Source: an uncultured virus (IMG/VR IMGVR_UViG_3300010998_000493) (lineage: Duplodnaviria; Heunggongvirae; Uroviricota; Caudoviricetes). From it: a DNA stretch of 64,000 nucleotides. Each line of letters opens with the position of its first letter. Within the stretch, counting starts at the first letter, position 1. A program made the position numbers and the translations under genes. The notes below the pieces were generated by a model. The model was not told the DNA's origin. It saw nothing but the letters and a program-made list of their open reading frames with translations, and did not search any database. The DNA lies in the IMG/VR virus record IMGVR_UViG_3300010998_000493. One strand, given 5' to 3'. Shown in pieces: positions 21,114 to 63,869 of this stretch.

Positions 21114-21530
21114 AAAGGCTCTTTGCTTGTATTCCTTCTTTTGCGACTATTGAGGAGGTCATTATTTGTATCATAGCCAATATGATTAGTTAAAATGCGA
21201 CTCGCGCAAAAATATTTGCGCGAGTTATGATTATAGAAAGTTTTATCATCGAATATCCAATACCGGGAGTATGCATCTTTACGTTAAAGGATGAAAGCAC
21301 TCGTCGCACTACCAACAATTGGAGTTTTTGCGTAAACAGAATTTTTTAGTGAAAACTTATCACGGATAGTTTGGAGTGTTCTACAGGGAAAATACAATTT
21401 GTGTGGAATGTTAATTTTTCAAAGATTGTTGGCGGTTTTAACCTAATGATAATCATCTATATACAAGAAAAGACTTGCATAAACAATACGTAAACTCCTT
21501 ATTTCTGTTAGGAGTATTTTTACGGGGGAT

Positions 21531-22025
21531 AAAACGAAATGTGTAAAAAGTGAGATGATATCTAACAAGGTATAAATGGCTGTATACAAATGCGTTTGAG
21601 TGATTTATACTGTGAGTAAATTGAGAGATAAAACAAAAACGAAATGTAACATTGGCTTTACATTTGCTTTACGTTTAGAGCACGTTTGAACGGCGTTTTA
21701 GAGGGAAAATGTAACATGGCGGTCTGGATGGATCGCTTTTTTTGTATGTGGCATTCTGGATGAAGCTGAACGGACATAGTCAGATAGGTTAAAAGCCCTG
21801 TATAGGCTTGTTCTGAGGCGTTTTCTACACGCGCACGTATATGTACCTATAACGAATAAGAAAGAGACTCTGAGGGAGCTATAATATAGCACCATACAGG
21901 ACGGCATTACGGATCATTTTCGTGACATTACGAAGATGGTCCTTTTTTGTGTCAAAAATGGGATTGGGTGGACATTTGGGTGGACGTTTGGATGGACAGA
22001 TTTTGATTTGCAAAAACGAAATGTG
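21531..22025 (+). repeat. Left-end transposase-binding sites L1-L3
   Basis: AAAACGAAATGT at 21531-21542, within 21634-21647 and within 22011-22025. Confidence 0.85.
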
Positions 22026-22051
22026 TTGATTGGGTGGACATTTGGGTGGAC
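21964..22051 (+). repeat. Five copies of TTGG(G/A)TGGAC with 12-bp period
   Basis: Units start at 21964, 21976, 21988, 22030 and 22042, flanking L3. Confidence 0.9.
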
Positions 22052-22280
22052 ACTTTTAACACTTTTTCAAGGCGATTCCAAGGGGAAAAGGGTCAAAAAA
22101 AATAGAAAAACAGCCTTTTTTTTCGTTTTCAAGGGGCGAAAATCAAAGAAAAAGACCGTTTTCAGATAGCGAAATTCACAACAAAGTGCTAATTCACAAT
22201 ACCTTGTGAGAAATGGCGTGAAATTTGGATGCGCATTTGGTTTTATGTCAGCGGCAAAACCACTGCCAATACGGCATCAT

Positions 22281-22913
22281 TCAGAAGAAGCGGGCAATGG
22301 AACCAAGCACCTCAAAGACACGTATGATGCGTGAGATGCCGAACTCCTGTTCATCGTATTCTTGATTGATGGGGACATAACGTAGCATATCAGGTGTGGA
22401 GCCACGTCGCAAGATTTTGATGGTTCGTATGGTGTCAAGCACGACTGCATATATTTCTCCGTACTGAATATCATTGATGGAGCACTCATGCAGTGCAATG
22501 ATGTCACCATGATTGATTTTCGGTTCCATAGAATGGCCTGTGACGTTGCACCAAACAGAAGCCTTCTCAAAGCCCGGCACCAGGACATTACAAGCCGGAA
22601 CCGTCGTCTGATTGTTGAATATCTCGTTGAAGCCACCTATGAAGTCCACATCGTAATATGGTGTTCCTACAGCCGGATCAAAGCTCACCTTTGCTGGAAC
22701 ATTCTCTTCTTTCAGCATAGCACCTTTGCCTGTGAGCAACCAATCCGAAGACAACTTTTCGCATTTTGCAAAAAGAAGATCATAATCAATCGTGTCACGA
22801 GACAGCCAAGAACTGATGGTTGACGGAGCAACCCCAATCATCTTAGCAAACACAGATGGTTTACCATCGCTATAATGGGCAATTATTGCCTCAAGCCGTT
22901 CTTTTTTAGTCAT
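22281..22913 (-). CDS. Phage CI-like repressor (HTH plus S24 peptidase)
   Basis: FAKMIGVAPSTISSW HTH, WLLTGKG, VTGHSMEP..TIK S24 Ser/Lys dyad. Confidence 0.93.
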   Translation of the reverse strand: MTKKERLEAIIAHYSDGKPSVFAKMIGVAPSTISSWLSRDTIDYDLLFAKCEKLSSDWLLTGKGAMLKEENVPAKVSFDPAVGTPYYDVDFIGGFNEIFNNQTTVPACNVLVPGFEKASVWCNVTGHSMEPKINHGDIIALHECSINDIQYGEIYAVVLDTIRTIKILRRGSTPDMLRYVPINQEYDEQEFGISRIIRVFEVLGSIARFF

Positions 22914-22915
22914 AA

Positions 22916-23017
22916 TTTTGCAGTTTGCGAAAAATAATCTCGAAAACATTTTGCATTTTGCGAAACGTTTACTATCTTTGCAGGCGTATTCATTAAGTGA
23001 ACAGCGCGACAAAGGTA
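22916..23017. promoter_or_regulatory. Lysis/lysogeny switch: operators and opposed promoters
   Basis: TTTTGCA(G/T)TTTGCGAAA at 22916-22933 and 22949-22965; TATCTTTG (+, 22973-22980) and TACCTTTG (-, 23010-23017). Confidence 0.75.
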
Positions 23018-24004: not shown

Positions 24005-26059
24005 ATGGAGTATTACAATAAGACATTGTGCGTAACATTCAAGGAACTAACAGAGGGCGGTATCATAACTGGCCCAACACTTCTGAAGAACGTCCAGCGA
24101 GGCAACATCCAGTGTGCCAATCGTGGTGGGGGTGAAGGTTCAAAGGCTCTATATGTTTATGCGTCGCTCCCTATGAAGTACAGGATGATGTTTGAAGCTA
24201 AGTATGGCAAGCCCGCAGACGTACTGAAGGCTCAGGACCTGAAGGAGCGGGTAAAGGAAGACAGTAATGCCAGAGTATTTTATGAGGCTTTTGAATATGA
24301 TTTGAACGGTGTTCAAACGCGGTTGAGCCAGAAACTCATTGATGAGTACACGGGCAATGCCAGTGTGCTGAAGATGCTCTGGGAGCGCATGAACGAGCTT
24401 ACGGCGACGACCCACGCTCTTGGCGGTGGCAGGCGCGGCGACCTCTGGGACATCATTTTCAGACAAAGCGAGAAACTGAGAGAGGTTACCGGCCACACCC
24501 TGCCTAAGAACCTGGCGCGATTGAAGGAGAAGATGTCACATTATAAGAAAAGCGGATATGAGACTCTGATCAGTGGCAAGGTAGGCAATAAGAATACCCT
24601 GAAGATAACCGAGGATGCCGGACGCAGGCTGATAGCCCTGAAGCGCAGCCGCGTGCCGGTACTGACGGACAGCCAGATATTCGACACCTTCAATCAGGAG
24701 TGCGAGGTTAAAGGCTGGAAGCCATTGAAGAGCGTGAGAAGTCTGAAGACATGGCTGGAGAGTGCTGCCATTGAACCATTGTGGCATGATGCAGTATATG
24801 GAGAGATGAGTGCCCATCAGAAGTTTGACCGCAGGCACAAGACCCAGTTGCCTACGATGAGGGATGCCCTCTGGTATGGTGACGGCACGAAGATAAACCT
24901 CTACTACCGTGACGACGAAGGCAAGGTGAGGACTACGAGCGTGTATGAGGTCATCGACGCTGCAACGGAAATGTTCTTAGGCTTCTGCATCAGCGACAAC
25001 GAGGACTACGAGGCTCAATATATGGCTTACAGGATGGCTATTCAGGTGAGCGGTCACAAGCCCTATGAGATTGTGCATGACAATCAGGGCGGCCATAAGA
25101 AGTTGCAGAGCCAGAAGTTCTTTGACAAGCTCTGCCACATCCACAGAACCACCGCCCCCTACAACGGCGCTTCAAAGACCATTGAAAGCGTATTCGGACG
25201 TTTCCAAATGCAGGTACTTCATAAGGACTGGCGCTTCACCGGTCAGAACATCACGGCTAAAAAAGACAGCAGCCGTCCGAACATGGAGTTTATCGAGGCA
25301 AACAAGGATAAGCTCTACACCTACGACGAACTGAAAGCAGCCTACCTGAAGGCGCGAACCGAATGGAACGAGATGGCACACCCCGCCACCGGCGAGCAGC
25401 GCATAAAGATGTACGAGCAGAGCGAGAACCCCGAAACACCCGTAGTGACCGCGAGCGACATGATAGATATGTTCTGGGTACAGTGCGACCGCATGAGCAC
25501 CTTCACCAGTAGCGGCATAGAGATAACCGTGAAAGGTCAGAAACGTGTGTACGAGGTGATGAGTGAACCAGGAGTGCCCGATATAGAGTGGCGCAGGAAG
25601 CACACCTATCAGAAATTCGTGGTGAAATACGACCCCTACGACTTCCAGAGCATCCGCTTGTACTGGAAAGACAAGGCCGGCGAACTGAGGTTTGAGCGTG
25701 TAGCGGAACCCTATATCGTAATACATCGCGCCATTCAGGAGCAGACGGAAGGCGAGGCTACATTCATCAGGCAGCAGCAGAAAGCCATAGAGCAAAGCCG
25801 GATAGAGCGTCAGGTGACAGGCAGGCAGATAGAGTTTGCCGAGGGTGTGGCACCAGAGCAGAACGGTCTCAGCAGTCCAGGCTTGAAGGGAGTGACCGCA
25901 GATGTTCAGAGGCAGATAGACCGCAGGCTCAGAAAGTACGGCAAGGAACCGGAGGAACTAAGCCTTGGCAGGTTGACAAAGAAGGTGAGCAAAATGGACT
26001 GGAGCGAAGTGAGCGAGACAGTCACCATTGATATGAAGAAAGTGGCAGGTAAACTATAG
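24005..26059 (+). CDS. Mu-like DDE transposase (MuA)
   Basis: WYGDGT, HDNQGG, SKTIESVFGRFQ DDE triad; 684 aa. Confidence 0.93.
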   Translation: MEYYNKTLCVTFKELTEGGIITGPTLLKNVQRGNIQCANRGGGEGSKALYVYASLPMKYRMMFEAKYGKPADVLKAQDLKERVKEDSNARVFYEAFEYDLNGVQTRLSQKLIDEYTGNASVLKMLWERMNELTATTHALGGGRRGDLWDIIFRQSEKLREVTGHTLPKNLARLKEKMSHYKKSGYETLISGKVGNKNTLKITEDAGRRLIALKRSRVPVLTDSQIFDTFNQECEVKGWKPLKSVRSLKTWLESAAIEPLWHDAVYGEMSAHQKFDRRHKTQLPTMRDALWYGDGTKINLYYRDDEGKVRTTSVYEVIDAATEMFLGFCISDNEDYEAQYMAYRMAIQVSGHKPYEIVHDNQGGHKKLQSQKFFDKLCHIHRTTAPYNGASKTIESVFGRFQMQVLHKDWRFTGQNITAKKDSSRPNMEFIEANKDKLYTYDELKAAYLKARTEWNEMAHPATGEQRIKMYEQSENPETPVVTASDMIDMFWVQCDRMSTFTSSGIEITVKGQKRVYEVMSEPGVPDIEWRRKHTYQKFVVKYDPYDFQSIRLYWKDKAGELRFERVAEPYIVIHRAIQEQTEGEATFIRQQQKAIEQSRIERQVTGRQIEFAEGVAPEQNGLSSPGLKGVTADVQRQIDRRLRKYGKEPEELSLGRLTKKVSKMDWSEVSETVTIDMKKVAGKL

Positions 26060-26101: not shown

Positions 26102-26968
26102 ATGGAACAGAAACAGAAAGAACAGATTGCACAGCGTCTGAGGACGTATGTAGCGAAGTATCGCAGCCAAAACAAGGCAGTGGGCAGCCTGAAAGGAACA
26201 AGTGCCGGAACAGTGAGCAACATCCTGAACGGCAAGTGGGAAAACATCAGCGAAGACATGTGGAAGAAGATAGGCGACCAAGTGGGCACCGGCAGCAGTG
26301 AAGACGGCTGGCAGATAGTGGAGACAGGCGCCTATCAGGAAATCACCTACGCGCTGCATGATGCCCAAGAGTGGAAAAACGTGACATGGGTAGTAGGCGA
26401 AGCCGGATGCGGCAAGACCACGACTGCGAAACTCTATGCGGAGGAACACAAGGAAGTTTTTTACCTGCTATGTTCAGAGGACTTGCACAAGGGCGAGTTT
26501 GTGAGAGAAATTGCCCGTCTGATAGGCATCCGTACTGAAGGCTACACGGTCAGAGGATTGTGGACCGCCATCCTTGACAACCTCATTCAGATGGATGCGC
26601 CCCTTCTCATCTTCGATGAAGCAGACAAGCTGACCGAAAGCGTGTTCCACTACTTCATCAGCCTCTACAACAAACTGGAAGACAAGTGTGGCGTAGTATT
26701 CATGAGTACGGACTATATCATCAAACGCATTGAAAAGGGGCTGAGATTGCAGCGTCCTGGCTATAAGGAATTCTACAGTCGCATCGGCAGGAAATACTTT
26801 GAGCTGGATGATACAACCGCTAACGATGTCTATGCCATCTGCACAGCCAACGGGCTGAGAGACCGCAAAGACATAGATGAAGTGATTAAGGATGCGGAGG
26901 AATACGACTATGACCTCCGCAGAGTCAAGAAGAGCATCCACAGGGTAAAACGTTCTAAGGCTGCATAA
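26102..26968 (+). CDS. MuB-like AAA transposition ATPase
   Basis: N-terminal HTH, GEAGCGKT, LIFDEADK, DLRRV. Confidence 0.92.
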   Translation: MEQKQKEQIAQRLRTYVAKYRSQNKAVGSLKGTSAGTVSNILNGKWENISEDMWKKIGDQVGTGSSEDGWQIVETGAYQEITYALHDAQEWKNVTWVVGEAGCGKTTTAKLYAEEHKEVFYLLCSEDLHKGEFVREIARLIGIRTEGYTVRGLWTAILDNLIQMDAPLLIFDEADKLTESVFHYFISLYNKLEDKCGVVFMSTDYIIKRIEKGLRLQRPGYKEFYSRIGRKYFELDDTTANDVYAICTANGLRDRKDIDEVIKDAEEYDYDLRRVKKSIHRVKRSKAA

Positions 26969-27911: not shown

Positions 27912-27938
27912 AACACGAATTTGAAAAGGATAGAAAGA

Positions 27939-28268
27939 ATGAAAAAGAAAGTATATATCAGTGGCAAGATAGGCGAAGAGGTCCTGAGCGAGGCAACCCG
28001 TGAGAAGTTCGCCAAAGCAGAGAAATGGCTGAAAGCCAAAGGATATGCCGTTTTCAATCCTACGACAAGCGGATTGGGTACAGTCGCTGAACAAGCAGCT
28101 AAGAAGTATGGAACCACATTTTACAAAGAGATACTTATTTATGACTTGATGGCCTTAAAGCAGTGTGATGCCATCTATATGCTTCCGGATTGGCAGCACA
28201 GTCCTGGCGCTTTAGTAGAGTATTTTTATGCAAAGGCTGTCGGCTTAGAAGTAATTATTACAAAATGA
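27939..28268 (+). CDS. DUF4406 / nucleoside 2-deoxyribosyltransferase-like protein
   Basis: VYISGKI..NP..LKQCDAIYMLPDWQHSPGALVE. Confidence 0.88.
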   Translation: MKKKVYISGKIGEEVLSEATREKFAKAEKWLKAKGYAVFNPTTSGLGTVAEQAAKKYGTTFYKEILIYDLMALKQCDAIYMLPDWQHSPGALVEYFYAKAVGLEVIITK

Positions 28269-28930: not shown

Positions 28931-29500
28931 ATGACGACAAGAAAGAAAAAGACCATTATTTCCGGCGTGACCCGTGAGGCAGCCGACGAAGCATTCGGCA
29001 TCTATGCTAAAGCCGATGCAAGCATCAGCAAGATTAACGCTGAGATTGAGCTGAAATGTGCTCAGATCCGTGACAAGTACGCAGATAGGTTGGCTCAGTT
29101 GAGTGAGGAACGTGATGAGGCTTTTGACAAGCTTCAGGCTTTTGCCACCGAGAACCAGTCAGAATTATTTGCCAAAAAGAAGAGTATGGAAATGGCTCAT
29201 GGTACAATCGGATTCCGCACTGGCACCCCGAAACTGAAAACTTTGAAAGGTTTCACCTGGGCGAGTGCACTGCAGCTTGCAAAGAAATTCCTTCCGGTCA
29301 CTTACATCCGCATGTCAGAAGACATAGCGAAGGACAGACTGCTTGCGGACCGTGACCTGAAAGAGACCGTGGTATATGACACCCCGACAGGTGAACCTCG
29401 GGAAGTGACCATGCGGGAAGCGATGGCCATATGTGGCATCCAAGTGACTCAAGACGAAACCTTCTATGTAGAACCAAAGAAAGAGAATACCGATAATTAA
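28931..29500 (+). CDS. gam: Gam-like host-nuclease inhibitor
   Basis: KKKSMEMAHGTIGFRTGTPKL..GIQVTQDETFYVEP. Confidence 0.85.
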   Translation: MTTRKKKTIISGVTREAADEAFGIYAKADASISKINAEIELKCAQIRDKYADRLAQLSEERDEAFDKLQAFATENQSELFAKKKSMEMAHGTIGFRTGTPKLKTLKGFTWASALQLAKKFLPVTYIRMSEDIAKDRLLADRDLKETVVYDTPTGEPREVTMREAMAICGIQVTQDETFYVEPKKENTDN

Positions 29501-55252: not shown

Positions 55253-55618
55253 ATGTACAGCAAAGGAGAAATGACTTATGCGGACGCAGGCAAGCTGCTG
55301 GTGGGCGATAAGGTAATCGCCTACCAGGTGCCTGGCGACGGCAGCGGATTTACGGAAGAGGTGATAAACATTGACGACATGCGCGTGGAGGACGGGTACC
55401 TTGTGTATTCCGGCGGAAGGCTGAGAGAGCCTTACCGTCCGCACGAGACCTACGCCAGTCTGAAGACGCGACTGGTGAAGCGGCGTTACAGCAATGATGA
55501 CCAGATAGCCATCATGCTCAATGATGACGCAGAGGCAATGGAGAAGATGCAGGAGTGGCGCGCATGGAGCGCACGGCTCGCACACAAAATATTGTCAATG
55601 CAAAGAGAGGAGGAATAA
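55253..55618 (+). CDS. Tail fibre-associated protein
   Basis: RRYSNDDQIAIMLN..MQEWRAW motif; follows the fibre gene. Confidence 0.65.
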   Translation: MYSKGEMTYADAGKLLVGDKVIAYQVPGDGSGFTEEVINIDDMRVEDGYLVYSGGRLREPYRPHETYASLKTRLVKRRYSNDDQIAIMLNDDAEAMEKMQEWRAWSARLAHKILSMQREEE

Positions 55619-55620
55619 TC

Positions 55621-55962
55621 ATGGACTGGCTGAATTATGTTTTATCAGTGCTGACACTGATTGCCGGCGGCGGGTGGTTCGTCAATTACAGAGCAAAGAA
55701 GATGCAGGCTGAGGCCGACGGCTGGAAGTCACAACAGGAAGTGTACCAACGGACCATAGCGGACCTCGAAAAGAGCTGCGAGTTTATCAGGGCTGATCGG
55801 GACCTGCTACGCAAAGAAAACGAGGAACTGCGTGCAGAGAATATGGACTGGCACAAGAAGTTCCAAGAACTCAGCACGAAATTCCAAGAACTGCAAGAGA
55901 AAGTGGCACGACAGGGACGCAGGATTGAGGCACTTACAAAGGAAAGCAAGAAAAAACAATGA
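55621..55962 (+). CDS. TM plus coiled-coil lysis-region protein (holin-like)
   Basis: N-terminal hydrophobic helix, long coiled coil, precedes the endolysin. Confidence 0.6.
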   Translation: MDWLNYVLSVLTLIAGGGWFVNYRAKKMQAEADGWKSQQEVYQRTIADLEKSCEFIRADRDLLRKENEELRAENMDWHKKFQELSTKFQELQEKVARQGRRIEALTKESKKKQ

Positions 55963-56438
55963 CACTCATGGAAATATCACAGACAGGTATCGATTTTATA
56001 AAGAAGTTTGAAGTACTCAAATTGTACGCATATAGAGATAGTGTAGGTGTCCCGACAATAGGGTATGGGCATACAAAGGGCGTGTACATGGGCATGGCCA
56101 TCACACAGAAACAAGCCGAAGACCTGTTCCAAGAGGACGTCACACCTATAGAGAAGATGCTAAACGGCATGGGTATCAATTTCCGGCAGGGACAGTTTGA
56201 TGCACTCTGCTCCTGGATATTCAACCTCGGACAGGGCAAATTCAACTCTTCCACGATGAAGAGATACATCGTCGCAAAAAAGGCTGACATGGACATCACT
56301 GACCAGATGGTCAAGTGGTATTACGCCGGAGGCCAGCCGCTTCTCGGACTGAAACGGCGCAGATGCGCTGAGGCGAACATGTGGCTGGGAAGAGAGGTGT
56401 ACTACGTTGACGCAAAAGGACAGATATGCAAAAGATAA
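55959..56438 (+). CDS. Endolysin, GH24 lysozyme
   Basis: FE..LYAYRDSVGVPTIGYGHT, QFDALCS, GLKRRR..E. Confidence 0.95.
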   Translation: MTLMEISQTGIDFIKKFEVLKLYAYRDSVGVPTIGYGHTKGVYMGMAITQKQAEDLFQEDVTPIEKMLNGMGINFRQGQFDALCSWIFNLGQGKFNSSTMKRYIVAKKADMDITDQMVKWYYAGGQPLLGLKRRRCAEANMWLGREVYYVDAKGQICKR

Positions 56439-56956
56439 TATACTGGATAGTGACATTCCTCTCAGGATGTATCATCGGAGCCTGTCTTCGGGAGAAAGAA
56501 GAGCATACTGACAGAGAGAGCGTCAGGGACACCGTCATCGACACAGTAAGGATAGACATGCCGGTGGCAAGGGACAGCGCGGTGGTAAGATACATAAAAG
56601 TCGTTGTGCCTGTAAAAAAAGACACAGAAACAGGCAAAAATTATGCGCAAAATTCAGCGGAAATTATGCACGGGGAGCCATGCCCTGCACTGGCAGTTGA
56701 CAGCGACAGTGTGAGCGTGGTTCTTCCCGTCACGCAGAAGCACTACAAGGACAGCGCATACGACGCATGGGTGAGCGGCTATATGCCACGGCTTGACAGC
56801 ATCAGGGTATATCAGAGGACAATCACCAACACTATACACAGGAAACAGCCGAGGCTGTCCGTCGGCGTTGTCGGCGGCTACGGCTACGGCATGAGCAGCC
56901 GGAGATTTGAGCCGTTTATCGGCATCGGCGTGAGTTACAGGCTTTATCCGCCATAA
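56426..56956 (+). CDS. Spanin-like lysis accessory protein (DUF6808-like)
   Basis: N-terminal TM, YDAWVSGY..LDSI, C-terminal beta-hairpin GYG..PFIGIGVSY. Confidence 0.65.
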   Translation: MQKIIYWIVTFLSGCIIGACLREKEEHTDRESVRDTVIDTVRIDMPVARDSAVVRYIKVVVPVKKDTETGKNYAQNSAEIMHGEPCPALAVDSDSVSVVLPVTQKHYKDSAYDAWVSGYMPRLDSIRVYQRTITNTIHRKQPRLSVGVVGGYGYGMSSRRFEPFIGIGVSYRLYPP

Positions 56957-57139: not shown

Positions 57140-57367
57140 ATGAAAGTGGCGGAATTGTTGAGGCTCAACGGAGCAATGATGAAAAAGATGTCAGAGCATG
57201 ACGTCAGGATGGATGACTGGAGATTTGCCGGACTGTATGACGAATACGTCAAAATGAGGGACGAGGAAATGAAATACAGTGTGGCTGTGTACCGTCTGGC
57301 AGAGAGATACGGCGTGAGCGAGGCGACGGTGGAGAGGACCGTGAGGCGTCTGGGAAAGGAGTGCTGA
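57140..57367 (+). CDS. Small HTH protein (Mor-like C-terminal HTH)
   Basis: LAERYGVSEATVERTVRRL. Confidence 0.75.
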   Translation: MKVAELLRLNGAMMKKMSEHDVRMDDWRFAGLYDEYVKMRDEEMKYSVAVYRLAERYGVSEATVERTVRRLGKEC

Positions 57368-57479
57368 GGTGTCAGGAGATGACGTTTCAAAAAAGCGTGT
57401 TTTTCTTGCGGGTAATGTCGAGAACGCTAATTTTGTCGGTGTCGATGCCACTTTAATGACATTTAATACTATTTGAACA

Positions 57480-58118
57480 ATGAATAAATACTACAAATTA
57501 CTGGAGAAAATTCTGGAGAACGGAAAGACCCAGACGAACAAAAAAGGAAACATTTGTTACCTGCTCAATGAGCAGTTGTCATTGACGCCAGCCAATCTGC
57601 TTGACATCTTCGAGAGTCATGGTATAGCACGAAAAAAATTGAAGAATGAACTGCAACTGTTCATGCGGGGAGAGCGTAATGTTGAGCGATACCGCGATGT
57701 AGGAATCAACTGGTGGGACTATTGTGGTTCTATCCTGATAAACAGTTATCCAACCTATTTTGAGAAATTGCCTCCTCTTATTGCAAAAATCAATCGTGAG
57801 AAACGCAACAGCAAGAATTATGTGTTGTTCCTTGGCTCAACTGATGCAGAAAGTAATCAAACGCCTTGTTTGAGTTTGGTGCAGTTCCAGATTGATGAGG
57901 GAGAACTTGTCGTGTCTGCTTATCAGCGAAGTAGTGACGCAAATTTAGGTTTGCCGTCAGACATTTACCATCTTTATTTGATGGCTCGACAAATAGATTT
58001 GCCTCTCAAATCTATCACGCTGAATCTCGGAAATGTTCACATCTATGAGAACAATATAGAACGAACAAAGGACTTGCTCAATGGTCATGAGAATGTGAAG
58101 TTTGAATTTAATGTTTAA
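57480..58118 (+). CDS. Thymidylate synthase-fold enzyme, likely dCMP (hydroxy)methylase
   Basis: TPCLSLVQF catalytic Cys, YQRSSDANLGLPSD, NVHIYENN; Asp at the ThyA Asn177 position. Confidence 0.8.
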   Translation: MNKYYKLLEKILENGKTQTNKKGNICYLLNEQLSLTPANLLDIFESHGIARKKLKNELQLFMRGERNVERYRDVGINWWDYCGSILINSYPTYFEKLPPLIAKINREKRNSKNYVLFLGSTDAESNQTPCLSLVQFQIDEGELVVSAYQRSSDANLGLPSDIYHLYLMARQIDLPLKSITLNLGNVHIYENNIERTKDLLNGHENVKFEFNV

Positions 58119-58169: not shown

Positions 58170-58232
58170 CACATTTCGTTTTTCTACTCAAAAAACACAT
58201 TTCGTTTTTGAAATTGCTCGCATTTCGTTTTG
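58170..58232 (-). repeat. Right-end transposase-binding sites R3-R1
   Basis: CATTTCGTTTT within 58170-58183, 58196-58210 and 58220-58232, inverted relative to the left-end sites. Confidence 0.88.
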
Positions 58233-58305
58233 CTGATTATATTTTGTAAGATCATAAGCATATAGATGAGGTCGTCATATCATAAAAAAAGTTATTATTT
58301 GCGTA

Positions 58306-58370: not shown

Positions 58371-58709
58371 GTGAAAATTTCATTTGGAGATAAGCGGCTT
58401 GAAGATTACGCTTCAGACGAGAGAAAGCGTGTGAGAAAACTCGGTGCCATAAGAGCCAAGTTATACAAGCAGCGGCTTGATGACCTCTACGCGGCAAATA
58501 CGTTGGAAGAGGTCAGGTATCTGCCAGGTCATTATCACGAATTGACAGAGGACAGAAAGGGACAATGGGCTTGTGACCTGGATCAGCCATATAGACTGAT
58601 ATTCACTCCGACGGCCCAGCCTATCCCAACTGATCCTGATGGTAAGTATATATGGATTGAGATTGACAGTATTGAGATAGAAAAAATAGATAACTACCAC
58701 GGCAAATAG
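58371..58709 (+). CDS. higB: HigB/RelE-like toxin
   Basis: HELTEDRKGQWACDLDQPYRLIF..IDNYH. Confidence 0.85.
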   Translation: MKISFGDKRLEDYASDERKRVRKLGAIRAKLYKQRLDDLYAANTLEEVRYLPGHYHELTEDRKGQWACDLDQPYRLIFTPTAQPIPTDPDGKYIWIEIDSIEIEKIDNYHGK

Positions 58710-58730
58710 TAATAACTAAATATAAACAGT

Positions 58731-59816
58731 ATGGCAACAAGAAATTTATACATCCCTGAAAGTGTTTCTCATCCAGGCACTACATTGGAAGAGAAACTGC
58801 AAGAAATGGGTATGTCTGTCAAGGAGTTCGCAGTGCGTTCGTCCAAACCAGAAAAAACTGTTATTGCCATTATTAAAGGCGACAGTTCTATTACCCCTGA
58901 AATGGCTGTGGCTTTTGAAAGTATCACCAAAATCCCTGCTAATTTTTGGATGAATAGGCAGCGCATTTATGATGAGTGCGTTGCTCGTTCTAAGCGTCAG
59001 GCACAAATTATTTCTTTCGCTGATTGGGCAAAGAAGTTCCCTTATGCAGATATGGTAAACCAAGGTTGGATAGAGAAAAAGACCAAACAAGTAGAAAAAA
59101 CTGCTGTCATTCTTGATTTCTTTGGAATCAGTTCCCCCAATGCTTGGGAGAACTATTATATGAATCAGCAACTGAAGGTTGCATTCCGAATCTCGCTTGC
59201 CACGACAAAGGAACCATACGCCATCTCCGCATGGTTGAGAAAAGGAGAACTCCAGGCATCGGAAATTCTTGTAAAGGAAATTTATTCAGACACTCTGTTG
59301 AAGAGCAAGCTGCCTCTGATGAAAGACCTCATGCGGAAAAATTCAAGTGACTTTGCAAAACAACTACAGGTGTTATGTGCTGAGTGTGGCGTAAAGCTCA
59401 TTTATACACCATGCCTGAAAAAGGCACCTATCAGTGGCTCTACAAGATGGATAAACAATATCCCTTGCATACAGTTGTCTGGTAGAAGCAAAAGATATGA
59501 CACTTTTTGGTTCTCGTTCTTTCATGAGATAGGACATATCCTGTTACATGGGAAGAAAGAAATTTTTCTTGAGGACATCGAATATGACGATGCTCAGAAA
59601 GCCAAAGAGAAGCAGGCCGATAAATTCTCGTCTGATATATTGTTATCTGAAAAAGAAGAAAAAGCAATACTCGAAGGAAACGATTTTTCTCAACGCAAAT
59701 TGAAATATTATGCAGACATGTTTAATACCCATCCTGCCATTATCGTTGGAAGGCTACAGCATTTGGGCATTCTTCCATTTGCTAAGCATGTGGAAAGTCT
59801 TGAGCTCTTCGGTTAA
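58731..59816 (+). CDS. higA: HigA antitoxin HTH fused to ImmA/IrrE (M78) metallopeptidase
   Basis: HPGTTLEE..ITPEMA..FWMNRQ; FFHEIGH HExxH..EKQAD. Confidence 0.88.
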   Translation: MATRNLYIPESVSHPGTTLEEKLQEMGMSVKEFAVRSSKPEKTVIAIIKGDSSITPEMAVAFESITKIPANFWMNRQRIYDECVARSKRQAQIISFADWAKKFPYADMVNQGWIEKKTKQVEKTAVILDFFGISSPNAWENYYMNQQLKVAFRISLATTKEPYAISAWLRKGELQASEILVKEIYSDTLLKSKLPLMKDLMRKNSSDFAKQLQVLCAECGVKLIYTPCLKKAPISGSTRWINNIPCIQLSGRSKRYDTFWFSFFHEIGHILLHGKKEIFLEDIEYDDAQKAKEKQADKFSSDILLSEKEEKAILEGNDFSQRKLKYYADMFNTHPAIIVGRLQHLGILPFAKHVESLELFG

Positions 59817-60791: not shown

Positions 60792-61652
60792 ATGGACATA
60801 CAGAAAATACACCAGTATAAGTCGGCTTTCGACCAGATAGCCAAGGAGGTAAAGGACGATGATGGCAACAGCATCGTGGTATGGTATGCCCGAGAGCTTC
60901 AGCAGCAGTTAGGCTATGCTCGTTGGGAAAACTTTGTGGTTGCGATAGGACGAGCAATCGACTCGTGTAAGACATTGGGAGTCAACGTTGATGACCATTT
61001 TCGTGAGGTCACGAAAATGGTCGGGTTGGGAAGTGGCTCACAACGCCCGATTCCCGACTTCATGCTCACCCGATATGCTTGTTATCTCATTGCACAGAAT
61101 GGTGACCCCAAGAAAGAGGAGGTGGCTTTCGCCCAAGGCTATTTTGCAGTTCAGACTCGCAAGGCCGAGCTTATTGAGGAGCGGTTGAATGAGATAGCCC
61201 GCCTTAGCACACGTGACCGTCTCCGCGCTTCCGAAAAACAACTGAGTCGGAACATTTTCCAACGAGGTGTTGACGAAAAAGGTTTTGGACGTATTCGTTC
61301 CAAGGGTGACCAAGCGCTATTCGGAGGATTAACTACTGAACAGATGAAGAGACGTTTGGGCATCAAGAGCGGAGCCTTAGCTGACCGACTGCCGACGCTG
61401 ACTATTGCTGCCAAAAACTTGGCAACAGAGATGACCAACTACAATGTTGAGCAGAAAGACCTTCAAGGCGAGAGAAGCATTACTGCCGAGCACGTGCAAA
61501 ACAACCGAAGTGTTCGCGGTATGCTTGGCCAGCGAGGCATCAAGCCCGAGCAATTGCCAGCTGCGGAGGACATCAAGAAAGTGGAGCGGCGTGTGGCCAA
61601 AGACGAGAAGGAAATGCAGAAAGCGACACAGAAGTTGCCTAAGCAGAAATAA
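60792..61652 (+). CDS. dinD: DinD-like DNA damage-inducible protein (Bro-N-like)
   Basis: WYARELQ..LGY..WENF, LTRYACYLIAQNGDP.K..VAFAQ.YFAVQTR. Confidence 0.88.
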   Translation: MDIQKIHQYKSAFDQIAKEVKDDDGNSIVVWYARELQQQLGYARWENFVVAIGRAIDSCKTLGVNVDDHFREVTKMVGLGSGSQRPIPDFMLTRYACYLIAQNGDPKKEEVAFAQGYFAVQTRKAELIEERLNEIARLSTRDRLRASEKQLSRNIFQRGVDEKGFGRIRSKGDQALFGGLTTEQMKRRLGIKSGALADRLPTLTIAAKNLATEMTNYNVEQKDLQGERSITAEHVQNNRSVRGMLGQRGIKPEQLPAAEDIKKVERRVAKDEKEMQKATQKLPKQK

Positions 61653-61657
61653 GCACC

Positions 61658-62500
61658 ATGACCAGACAAGGATTCATAGATTTTAATACACGACTGTCGC
61701 CTGAAAACTCCGGGAAAGCTCCTAGCTATGCTATGGCTATCAAGATTCTGGACAAGGTGCTTCAGTATCAGAGTGTGATAGACCTGCATGGACAATCACT
61801 CTACAACGTTCGGGACACTGAGACCATTGAGGCTGTGCTGCAACTGGTGGGCAACGAGGTGAAAAAGATGAGACGGAATGAACCCAATATTTTTGACTAC
61901 GGCAAGCCAAACCAACGGAGCTATCCGCTGAAGAATTTCTGCTCGTCTGCTCTTAGAAGCCTAAAGCAATATGCTCAATACGAGCAGGAAGTGGTGGTAG
62001 CAGATGGTATTGTGGCTCAGGAACGGAATCCGCGAACCATCTCTACGAAGCTCATTGCACATTTTGATATTACAAAAGAGGGCGAAGACAAAATTTCACT
62101 TACCAAGCAGCGAAAAGGCCAAGACTTTTTCCGGCGGATGATTCTTGCTAATTATGGAGGCCGTTGCGCCCTTACTGGTATTGACATTCCTCAACTGCTG
62201 CTTGCCAGCCACATTATACCATGGGCCGACAAATCTCATAAGAAGGACCGGCTAAATCCCTGCAACGGCATCTGCCTCTCTGCCCTGTATGACAAGGCCT
62301 TTGACCAAGGCCTCATCACCATCTCGCCCGATGACTACTGCGTTGTCCTATCCTCCGCCCTGCGAGAGAACGAGACAAAGGAGTACTACGACAAACACTT
62401 CGATTGCATCAAAGGTCAGAAGCTAACGATGCCCACAGACCATCTACCCAACCGAGATTTTTTGGCATATCATAAAGATAAAGTATTCCTTGGGGAATAA
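61658..62500 (+). CDS. HNH endonuclease (putative restriction endonuclease)
   Basis: GQDFFR..YGGRCALTG..ASHIIPW..NGICLS..DKAFDQG. Confidence 0.88.
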   Translation: MTRQGFIDFNTRLSPENSGKAPSYAMAIKILDKVLQYQSVIDLHGQSLYNVRDTETIEAVLQLVGNEVKKMRRNEPNIFDYGKPNQRSYPLKNFCSSALRSLKQYAQYEQEVVVADGIVAQERNPRTISTKLIAHFDITKEGEDKISLTKQRKGQDFFRRMILANYGGRCALTGIDIPQLLLASHIIPWADKSHKKDRLNPCNGICLSALYDKAFDQGLITISPDDYCVVLSSALRENETKEYYDKHFDCIKGQKLTMPTDHLPNRDFLAYHKDKVFLGE

Positions 62501-62510
62501 ACATATTAAA

Positions 62511-63869
62511 ATGAAACAACATACTGTTGACAAATTATCAAAAGACGAGATATTCGGTGGAAAAGTTATTGCCTCTTACAGGCAATGGCTGAAGAAACAC
62601 CATCAAGAAACAAAAGGTTACGATTACAGAGCAGATATGGCTGTTATTACACACTATCTGCAAAACATAGATTATCCAGAAGGCAATTTATATCGCAATG
62701 AGGCACTTCCCTTATTGGAAAAATACTATCGTGCAGCACATCCTGATTTCTATGAGAATGATGAACCGAGCTTTGAACAAATTAAAGAACTCTTTTCCGA
62801 AATCTATGCAGCGCCTGTTCATACGCGACATCGTGGTAACAATGCCTTTACTTTCGTTGATTTGTTTGCCGGCATTGGAGGATTTCGCATCGCTCTTGAA
62901 CAATTAGGCGGTCGATGCGTATATGCTTCTGAATTTGATTCCAGCGCTCAAAGAAGCTACGGCTTTAATCATGGTGTTATGCCATTCGGAGATATAACAA
63001 AGCAGAAAAATAAGGACCGAATACCTGAAAACGTAGATGTGTTATGCGCCGGATTCCCATGCCAACCATTCTCTTTAGCAGGATTGCGAAAAGGTTTTTC
63101 TGACGAAAAGAAAGGAACCTTGTTTTATGACCTTCGAGATATTATAGCTGCAAAGCGGCCTCGCATTATTCTTTTGGAAAACGTTCAAGGCCTACTCTCA
63201 ATACACAATAAAGATGAAGAAGGAAACAGTTTGCCTGAAAAAACGATTGAGACTATCCTGAGCATTCTTAGAGAAGAACTTCACTATTATATACCCGAAC
63301 CAAAAGTACTGAATGCTAAAGATTTTGGCGTTCCACAAAACAGAAATAGGGTTTTCATAGTTGGATTTCGAGACCGTCCACAAGAAGATTATCGCTATCC
63401 AACGGGTGAAGGAATTCCAGATGTACATTTTGGAGCAATACGAGAAAACGGAATTGTGGACACCAGATACTATATGTCCAATAGATACTGGCAAACCTTA
63501 CTAAGACATAAGACTGCACAGCGTAAGCAGGGAAGGGGATACGGTTATCGAATTATCAATGATGATGATTTCGGTCATACGTTGATGGTTGGAGGTATGG
63601 GATTAGAGCGAAATTTGGTTGTTGACGAGGCTAATTCTGAAGTGAATAATGTGATTGATCCTCGCGGCGAACTAAATCATGATCATATACGTGTATTGAC
63701 TGAAAGAGAATGTGCCCGAATGCAAGGTTTCCCAGACTATTTTGAGATTCTTTACGGAAAGACCCCGGCTTATAAGCAATTTGGAAATTCAGTTGCAATT
63801 CCTGTGGTAAGAGAAGTTGCCGCCTCTTTGCTCGCACTTGCCAATATTGATTATTTCCTTGTAGAATAG
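62511..63869 (+). CDS. DNA (cytosine-5)-methyltransferase
   Basis: FAGIGG, GFPCQ, ENV, QNRNR, QFGNSV motifs. Confidence 0.96.
   Translation: MKQHTVDKLSKDEIFGGKVIASYRQWLKKHHQETKGYDYRADMAVITHYLQNIDYPEGNLYRNEALPLLEKYYRAAHPDFYENDEPSFEQIKELFSEIYAAPVHTRHRGNNAFTFVDLFAGIGGFRIALEQLGGRCVYASEFDSSAQRSYGFNHGVMPFGDITKQKNKDRIPENVDVLCAGFPCQPFSLAGLRKGFSDEKKGTLFYDLRDIIAAKRPRIILLENVQGLLSIHNKDEEGNSLPEKTIETILSILREELHYYIPEPKVLNAKDFGVPQNRNRVFIVGFRDRPQEDYRYPTGEGIPDVHFGAIRENGIVDTRYYMSNRYWQTLLRHKTAQRKQGRGYGYRIINDDDFGHTLMVGGMGLERNLVVDEANSEVNNVIDPRGELNHDHIRVLTERECARMQGFPDYFEILYGKTPAYKQFGNSVAIPVVREVAASLLALANIDYFLVE

Follow-up and report, generated by a model that had tools for sequence, protein, structure and literature searches.

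A thymidylate synthase homologue with a dCMP-type specificity residue at the mom position of a Mu-like Bacteroidales prophage, a predicted cytosine-nucleotide C5-transferase

In phage Mu, the last gene at the right end of the genome is mom, the product of which modifies adenine in DNA after replication. A 64,000 nt stretch of DNA from an uncultured virus (IMG/VR record IMGVR_UViG_3300010998_000493; the whole of this stretch is hereafter termed the window) contains a 36.7 kb Mu-like, or Hankyphage-like, prophage of a rumen Bacteroidales bacterium, in which the corresponding position is held by an open reading frame (ORF) encoding a 212 aa homologue of thymidylate synthase (TS). The question raised by this locus is whether the encoded enzyme uses deoxyuridine monophosphate (dUMP), like an ordinary TS, or deoxycytidine monophosphate (dCMP) and, if the latter, whether DNA is the eventual target. 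The reading developed here, to which a probability of roughly one half is assigned, is that the protein is a TS-superfamily, folate-dependent pyrimidine-nucleotide C5-transferase with dCMP instead of dUMP as its substrate, forming part of a right-end DNA-modification module. Judged by its sequence, the protein very likely belongs to a distinct TS subfamily and acts as a C5-transferase on cytosine nucleotides, its gene lying in a position like that of mom, and the best reading of its activity is a predicted dCMP C5-methylase or hydroxymethylase, two products between which the sequence does not distinguish.

To our knowledge, TS homologues that build modified pyrimidines come almost exclusively from lytic phages that supply kinases, dCTPases and polymerases themselves. 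The temperate phages met most often in gut and rumen Bacteroidales include the transposable phages of the Hankyphage type. The homologue described here is compact, strongly conserved and carries the cytosine-specificity residue, and the temperate transposable group that has it at the mom position is represented by at least 407 genome stretches from Bacteroidales species. Were it active on dCMP, the cytosines of very common prophages of the gut and rumen would be modified in part, with effects on restriction, on targeting by clustered regularly interspaced short palindromic repeat (CRISPR) systems and on microbiome sequencing by bisulfite, enzymatic-conversion or nanopore methods. Thousands of database entries called 'thymidylate synthase' would then be misnamed, and the unusual active-site signature would offer a test case for the choice between methyl and hydroxymethyl products in the TS family.

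Family, fold and active site of the right-end gene

The 212 aa protein matches Pfam family PF00303 (E = 3e-22; 79.5 bits, cut-off 24.3) and phrog_160, 'thymidylate synthase' (1.6e-31). Eight NCBIfam ThyA models respond to it and all remain far below their equivalog cut-offs, the best at 64.6 bits against 327, TIGR03284 at 63.8 bits against 108.35 and the methanogen-type model at 41.9 bits against 174.55. An AlphaFold2 model, for which an alignment of 15 sequences served as input, has a mean predicted local distance difference test score (pLDDT) of 94.9 and a predicted template modelling score (pTM) of 0.92. Only seven of about 48,000 representative chains compared with this model scored above Z 8, every one of them a member of the TS superfamily, and Foldseek ranked the TS structure 6auj first (7e-19); on the basis of the model, the TS-superfamily fold of the product is regarded as certain. 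Because canonical TS structures (Z 21.1-21.8), the flavin-dependent dCMP monooxygenase 9iqc (Z 20.0), MilA (Z 18.5) and the T4 dCMP hydroxymethylase (Z 17.8) all fall between 17.8 and 21.8, the fold search does not name the subfamily.

Individual residues were compared in an alignment of E. coli K-12 ThyA (from the MG1655 record), T4 gp42, RB69 gp48, the homologues from phages Xp12 and SP8, and family representatives; the numbering of the E. coli protein is followed unless a window residue is named. At 21% identity to E. coli ThyA (EC 2.1.1.45), the window protein shares its fold (Z 21-22 to TS structures) and has the equivalent of the catalytic Cys146, at Cys130. The first-pass annotation of this DNA had placed an aspartate at the position of Asn177, and this is borne out: YQRSSDANLGLPSDI lies on YQRSCDVFLGLPFNI of ThyA, and Asn177 therefore corresponds to Asp161. 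Its observation that PCL replaces PCH is likewise correct, His147 being represented by Leu131, such that neither Asn177, the determinant of uracil specificity in ThyA, nor His147 is present. Residues E58, W80, Y94, C146, Q165, R166, S167, D169, H207 and Y209 are kept, and the changes relative to E. coli are N177D, H147L, L143Q, W83C, F176S, R21K, R126K and R127N. The complete set of key residues in the window is accordingly K21, E58, W80, C83, Y94, K126, N127, Q143, C146, L147, Q165, R166, S167, D169, S176, D177, H207 and Y209. P92 and Q165 are TS-like, and the small domain is about 14 residues shorter than that of E. coli ThyA.

Position 177 has a reported bearing on substrate choice. Asn at this site is described as going with the use of dUMP and Asp with that of dCMP, with N177D switching TS to dCMP, and positions 177 and 147 as the two most strongly associated with cytosine-modified contigs (PMC8670742); the state of the window protein, D at 177 and L at 147, is the 'modified' one at both. 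The link between the Asn-to-Asp change and dCMP use, which the first-pass annotation had stated, is found in reports of both mutagenesis and metagenomic association (PMC8670742, PMC13326640).

Many of the key residues are fixed among relatives. E58, W80, C146, R166, S167, D169, G173, D177, H207 and Y209 are invariant across 15 family representatives, and Asp177 is found in 77/77 full-length viral copies. The key residues are also fixed in all 77 apart from K21 (Arg in three), L147 (Pro in one) and position 176, which is Ala in 62 and Ser in 15. In a maximum-likelihood tree of 24 rows, the window protein falls in a 10-row clade (support 99/96) nested in a 13-row clade (support 97/90) with a signature of N127, Q143 in 12 of the 13 rows, L, I or M at 147, and D177 throughout. 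This clade is distinct both from a group comprising canonical ThyA and four full-length proteins with Asp177 and Leu143, and from the long-branched pair formed by T4 and RB69.

The C-terminal region of ThyA had been described as missing, a claim that stands in part. There are 23 residues after the equivalent of Tyr209, 32 fewer than the 55 of E. coli ThyA, and most of the region is therefore absent; what remains ends in a highly conserved motif, V-[KR]-F-x-L-N-[VT], with F208 and N211 invariant in 112 distinct sequences, which may be a retained tail. In two of three MAFFT alignments, though not in the third, the motif falls on the very end of ThyA and of longer relatives with Asp177; the protein may therefore represent an internal deletion with the tail kept rather than a simple truncation. 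The C-terminal region and tail that seal the folate site of ThyA are thus represented by 23 residues against 55, with the alignments of the tail split, and Trp83 and Leu143 by Cys and Gln (W83C and L143Q). At residue 210, within the motif, the window protein has Phe and 111 of the 112 distinct homologues have Leu.

Relatives of the gene are widespread. A search of 5.8 billion proteins returned at least 8000 matches, all 8000 scored candidates being positive; among the 120 matches listed, almost all are 212 aa long and 89-100% identical, and those with names are called 'thymidylate synthase' and assigned to Prevotella or Bacteroidales. Among 1.84 billion representatives clustered at 50% identity there were 1248 matches at E <= 0.001, only 59 of them at E <= 1e-30. 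A relative is encoded in 499/516 IMG/VR stretches and 407/507 stretches of GTDB species genomes, with hosts including Prevotella, Segatella, Hoylesella, Alloprevotella, Bacteroides, Phocaeicola, Parabacteroides, Alistipes and Muribaculaceae. Among the matching phage records, 21 show 83% protein identity and the 1675 others less than 60%; the nearest named phages are the Bacteroides Hankyphages p00, jmh_hp, BX-TP and BKO1-TP, at 83%. Colinear 212-codon copies are present in 153 of 160 kept loci, and 152 of these 153 are intact, giving 112 distinct proteins with 95 invariant positions, a pattern indicating that the gene is under strong purifying selection. The median ratio of nonsynonymous to synonymous substitution (dN/dS) is 0.033, from 13 pairs with usable, saturated dS (median 2.0), and is not used as support.

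Five other lysogen genomes were searched with PF00303 for a host thyA. In four, a canonical full-length thyA (420-428 bits) accompanies the phage copy (62-70 bits), and canonical Bacteroidales ThyA resembles that of E. coli in having R21, R126, R127, L143, H147, F176 and N177. Because four of the five lysogens thus have a canonical thyA as well, and the NCBIfam scores lie far below their cut-offs, sequence comparison identifies the prophage gene as something other than the housekeeping ThyA. The fifth genome (G002, the source of loci L126 and L144) has two phage TS-like copies, which imply two prophages, and gave no canonical PF00303 thyA hit.

The right end of the prophage and its modification module

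The following features define the prophage and the setting of the gene.

21531..22023 (-): left-end region with three inverted copies of CATTTCGTTTT, at 21531, 21636 and 22013
22281-23012 (-): CI-like repressor (phrog_4, 4.1e-30)
24005-26059 (+): MuA-type transposase (phrog_310, 3e-92)
26102-26968 (+): MuB-type transposition ATPase (phrog_296, 7.2e-64)
27921-28268 (+): early-region ORF of 115 aa with a DUF4406 domain, nucleoside 2-deoxyribosyltransferase-like (PF14359, 6.5e-18)
28931-29500: Gam
Within the prophage: terminase, portal, protease, capsid, sheath, tape measure and baseplate genes
55555-56956: lysis cassette
57140..57367 (+): conserved 75 aa ORF upstream of the TS-like gene (phrog_17790, unknown function, 5.7e-12)
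57428..57435 (+): TAATTTTG box, starting 52 nt before the start codon of the TS-like gene
57480..58118 (+): TS-fold gene, predicted dCMP C5-transferase (from the ORF, Pfam, PHROG, AlphaFold2, fold matches and residue tables)
58172..58231 (+): right-end repeats, three exact copies of CATTTCGTTTT (58172, 58198 and 58221), to which the transposase may bind
58239..58240: approximate right terminus, where similarity to related prophages ends

The possession of MuA and MuB, a left-end repressor and inverted multi-copy end repeats is that of the Hankyphage group of Mu-like transposable phages, and the presence of repressor, MuA, MuB, Gam, head, tail and lysis genes agrees with the temperate Mu-type phage originally proposed. 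The Hankyphage itself is reported to be a Mu-like temperate phage with random integration and 5 bp repeats (PMC6199706). Matches to CATTTCGTTTT with at most one mismatch number 11, against 2.19 expected. Of the 149 loci aligned, 13 show the resemblance to related prophages elsewhere breaking off at 58240-58242; because the end repeats follow the TS-like gene and similarity stops at about 58240, the gene is the last of the prophage, as had been supposed, with its stop codon approximately 121 bp from the right end. The flanking sequences suggest a candidate 5 bp target duplication, TATTT or ATTTT, at 21515-21520 and 58240-58245; no empty integration site was found that could confirm it. Several near-identical GGGTGGACATTTGG-like words lie at 21955-22060, between the second and third left-end repeats, and may be operator or enhancer sites.

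The gene therefore stands where Mu carries mom, as the first-pass annotation had noted, and both genes close the right end of a transposable phage, with a small conserved ORF ahead of them. The likeness is one of position only, the fold and chemistry of Mom being unrelated to those of the TS-like protein. The closest known counterpart is the 'thymidylate synthase' of Hankyphage p00 (BK010646, DAC76694.1), with those of jmh_hp, BX-TP and BKO1-TP, which is 83% identical over 212 residues, has the same key residues and likewise stands at the right end of a temperate phage of the Mu type. Hankyphage p00 has an N6 DNA methyltransferase after the gene and a diversity-generating retroelement (DGR) upstream, whereas neither adjoins the gene in the window. 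The word 'thymidylate' is absent from the main texts of the Hankyphage papers; a further Hankyphage paper that does mention 'thymidylate synthase' does so with regard to lytic phages, and no discussion of a cytosine-related role for this gene was found in the literature searched, which included part of the supplements to one paper (PMC12135933).

Among 80 related viral loci, a homologue of the 75 aa ORF lies upstream of the TS-like gene in 78. The window ORF itself (57140..57367) has no Pfam match and could possibly be a small DNA-binding regulator of the module. A D12-class N6-adenine DNA methyltransferase (Pfam PF02086) is directly adjacent in 71 of the 80 loci, on the downstream side in 42 and on the upstream side in 29, and some of the nine loci without one end at a contig edge. 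This recurrent right-end pairing with a DNA methyltransferase in relatives points, by guilt by association, to DNA as the target of the TS-like enzyme, and is the main contextual argument for such a role. In L025, L029, L050 and some 35 other IMG/VR loci, the pair of TS-like and methyltransferase genes is followed, 0.9-3.1 kb downstream of the TS-like gene, by Gam-like and virion-morphogenesis-like ORFs on the opposite strand; in these loci, where the module is not at a contig end, either the genome arrangement differs or the assembly runs across ends.

An own TAATTTTG box for the gene had also been reported, and it is present at 57428-57435; it is a possible Bacteroidetes -7 promoter element. 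The motif TANNTTTG alone is hardly above chance in the window, with 58 matches against 42.9 +/- 6.0 expected and 3 of 100 shuffles reaching 58. A box of this type occurs within 120 nt upstream of the gene in 44 of the 80 related viral loci, and in 43 of these at 30-33 nt. A scan for sigma-70 promoters and terminators around the TS-like gene gave nothing above the shuffled expectation. After knock-down of the repressor, log2 fold changes of 0.06, 2.0, 1.5, 1.8 and 4.4 are reported for the Hankyphage 'ThyA' at 0, 1, 2, 6 and 22 h (PMC12135933, supplementary file 9), with most structural genes in the same data reaching log2 values of 4-7 and the methyltransferase peaking early, at 3.9-4.2 (PMC12135933). 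From these values, induction of the Hankyphage copy accompanies the lytic programme and is weaker than that of its neighbours.

Substrate, product and rival explanations

The flavin-dependent 5-hydroxy-dCMP synthases RB69 gp48 and DLP3 gp80 have the TS fold, Asp177 and a short C-terminus in common with the window protein. Asn at position 169 is reported to mark this class (PMC13326640), and RB69 gp48 has, besides the diagnostic D169N, changes at E58, W80 and Y209; all four of these residues are kept in the window protein. Because Asp153 (position 169) is kept, and is invariant in the family, a synthase of the RB69 gp48 type is ruled out. T4 gp42, which belongs to a separate clade and is 15% identical, is like the window protein in having Asp at 177, Lys at the R21 position (K28 in T4), no Trp83, a polar residue at 176 and a short C-terminus; the aspartate at 177/179 and the catalytic cysteine that characterise a T4-type dCMP hydroxymethylase are both found in the window. 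In the T4 enzyme, Asp145 is reported to activate water with Ser94 as its partner, and D145N to yield no 5-hydroxymethyl-dCMP (5hm-dCMP) (PMC6400193). The residue three before the catalytic cysteine (Cys-3, position 143) is described as keeping water out when it is Leu and as marking hydroxymethylases when it is Asp or Glu (PMC13326640). The window protein fails this hydroxymethylase signature of Asp/Glu at Cys-3 and Ser/Thr94 because it has Gln127 and Pro91 at the two sites.

MilA and BcmA, cytidine monophosphate (CMP) hydroxymethylases, are described as having Lys at R126' and Ala at S167 (PMC5175136). The window protein resembles them in Asp177 and in Lys112 at R126', and differs in Ser151 rather than Ala at 167, in Gln rather than Asp at Cys-3 and in belonging to a phage rather than an antibiotic gene cluster; the MilA/BcmA signature is accordingly absent. 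Other members of its clade have Arg at position 126, where the window protein has Lys. A deoxy substrate is favoured because Ser167 is kept despite Lys126, and because Arg is the residue in these other members.

The DNA of phage Xp12 is reported to carry 5-methylcytosine (5mC) in place of C (PMC7653180). The sole PF00303 gene of Xp12 encodes N143, P147, D177 and a full C-terminus, and lies beside genes for a dCMP deaminase and dihydrofolate reductase (DHFR); the homologue in SP8, a phage with 5-hydroxymethyldeoxyuridine, has Asp at Cys-3 and Asn177. The features used here for an Xp12-type dCMP methylase are those of our own comparison rather than of a curated definition. Asp177 with a non-acidic Cys-3 residue is common to both proteins (D161 and the amide Q127 in the window, D and the amide N in Xp12), as is a residue other than His at 147. 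Xp12, a lytic phage, differs in that its protein keeps R21, R126 and R127 and has 61 residues after Y209, against 23 in the window, and in having a DHFR gene two genes away; none turned up among the scanned ORFs of the prophage.

From these comparisons, 5-methyl-dCMP is predicted as the product at about even odds, with a distinctly smaller chance for 5-hydroxymethyl-dCMP and a lesser one again for something else. Gln at Cys-3 tilts towards methyl because an amide occupies this site in the methyl-C phage Xp12, and the TS-like P92 and Q165 and the behaviour of T4 D145N tilt the same way. The more polar folate pocket (W83C, F176S and L143Q) tilts towards hydroxymethyl, as do R21K, matching T4 K28, and the absence of about 32 C-terminal residues.

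The proposed course of events is that, during lytic replicative transposition, the enzyme would turn part of the dCMP pool into 5-substituted dCMP, which host kinases and the host replisome would then place in new phage copies; no phage kinase having turned up among the scanned ORFs, this host-dependent step is pure inference. The outcome would be a partial, sequence-independent modification of cytosine that could blunt restriction in the next host. The module envisaged consists of the TS-like gene and the conserved 75 aa ORF at the Mu mom position and, in most relatives though not in the window, would also hold the D12-class N6-adenine methyltransferase. A bolder version, which we consider decidedly unlikely, is that an unrecognised TS subfamily (Asn127/Gln143/Leu147/Asp177, with C-terminal VKFxLNV) makes a C5-substituted cytosine nucleotide, perhaps neither methyl nor hydroxymethyl, that the host replisome incorporates without a phage kinase or polymerase; no earlier case of base modification before replication would then be known from a Mu-type phage, and adenine methylation would accompany it in most relatives.

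Several observations weigh against a dCMP C5-transferase serving DNA modification. The window prophage has no D12 methyltransferase homologue by tblastn and so lacks an adjacent methyltransferase, which means that the module argument comes from its relatives. The prophage ORFs scanned yielded no deoxynucleoside monophosphate (dNMP) kinase, dCTPase, DHFR or glycosyltransferase, and TS homologues expressed in E. coli without their cognate kinase are reported to give only trace incorporation (PMC13326640); incorporation into DNA is for these reasons the weakest link. The comparison with Xp12 is a single case, in which the cited papers concern the DNA of the phage and not its enzyme, and the lower induction of the Hankyphage copy would fit basal expression of the moron type or else late expression that is weak. 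Of the four arginines that bind phosphate in TS, three are altered (R21K, R126K and R127N), because of which the substrate could differ from a plain dNMP, and Lys at 126 is the state of the CMP-preferring MilA and BcmA, although Ser167 is the deoxy-preferring state.

The alternatives differ in which of these observations they accommodate. The annotation in public records, an ordinary thymidylate synthase acting as an auxiliary metabolic gene that boosts deoxythymidine monophosphate (dTMP) during phage replication, draws on the PF00303 match, on the canonical TS sequences and structures that are closest to the protein, on its record name and on the many phages that carry true TS genes. It is nonetheless highly unlikely, given that Asp177 and Leu147 are invariant or nearly so, that W83, L143, F176, R21 and R127 are all altered with some 32 C-terminal residues absent, that all ThyA equivalog models score far below cut-off and that four of five lysogens already possess a canonical thyA. 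A nucleotide-pool enzyme, whose 5-substituted dCMP is not incorporated and instead drains dCMP and dCTP, feeds dTMP through deamination of 5-methyl-dCMP or hinders competing phages from the lysogen, is also unlikely, if less so: the lack of a phage kinase among the scanned ORFs, the reported trace-only incorporation in E. coli without a cognate kinase (PMC13326640), the possible own promoter and the weaker induction of the Hankyphage copy relative to structural genes would all suit it, whereas the adjacency to a DNA methyltransferase in 71 of 80 relatives points to DNA and the module contains no dCMP deaminase.

It is hardly credible that the gene forms a MilA/MilB-like pair with the DUF4406 protein of the prophage, with the TS homologue modifying CMP or dCMP and the DUF4406 protein freeing the modified base. 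Lys126 is as in MilA, DUF4406 homologues in phage records are named nucleoside 2-deoxyribosyltransferase, and DUF4406 was found in 20 of 34 TS-bearing phage records searched, which had been chosen from 81 for their long contigs; of the 21 records with a completeness of 90% or more, 14 have it. Against this, Ser167 and Gln143 do not fit the MilA signature (Ala176, Asp at Cys-3), Hankyphage p00 and the other seven of the 21 near-complete records have no DUF4406, the two genes are 30 kb apart and DUF4406 is common in phages without a TS homologue, such as N15, phiKO2 and mycobacteriophages; the DUF4406 protein may still act on nucleotides. We also strongly doubt that the C5 product is neither methyl nor hydroxymethyl, through capture of the exocyclic methylene intermediate by another nucleophile, or that the substrate is something other than a nucleoside monophosphate. 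The N127/Q143/[L,I,M]147 signature fits no characterised class and three of four phosphate-binding arginines are changed, but the residues that bind the phosphate and 3'-OH in TS (R166, S167, H207 and Y209) are without exception invariant, and the kept D169 excludes the flavin hydroxylase type.

Other features of the prophage and its flanks

Between 48438 and 55230 (+) lie a 1984 aa ORF and an overlapping 305 aa ORF, with repeated matches to phrog_35892 and phrog_18805 and repeats of the 'IPNSVTSIG..AF' type; these are probably tail-fibre or receptor-binding proteins. No reverse transcriptase or DGR was seen between these ORFs and the lysis genes, unlike in Hankyphage p00.

The host flank begins, just outside the right end of the prophage, with a HigB-like toxin ORF (PF05015, 7.1e-5, below cut-off; phrog_3066) followed by a 361 aa protein with helix-turn-helix (HTH) and IrrE/M78 peptidase domains (58371-59816, +), which together look like a toxin-antitoxin-like pair. 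Further along, a Bro-N domain protein is encoded at 60792-61652, and an HNH_2 endonuclease (PF13391) overlaps a C5 cytosine DNA methyltransferase (PF00145, 1.4e-80) at 61658-63869 (+). The latter two, approximately 3.4 kb from the prophage end, are likely to be a host restriction-modification pair that uses 5mC.

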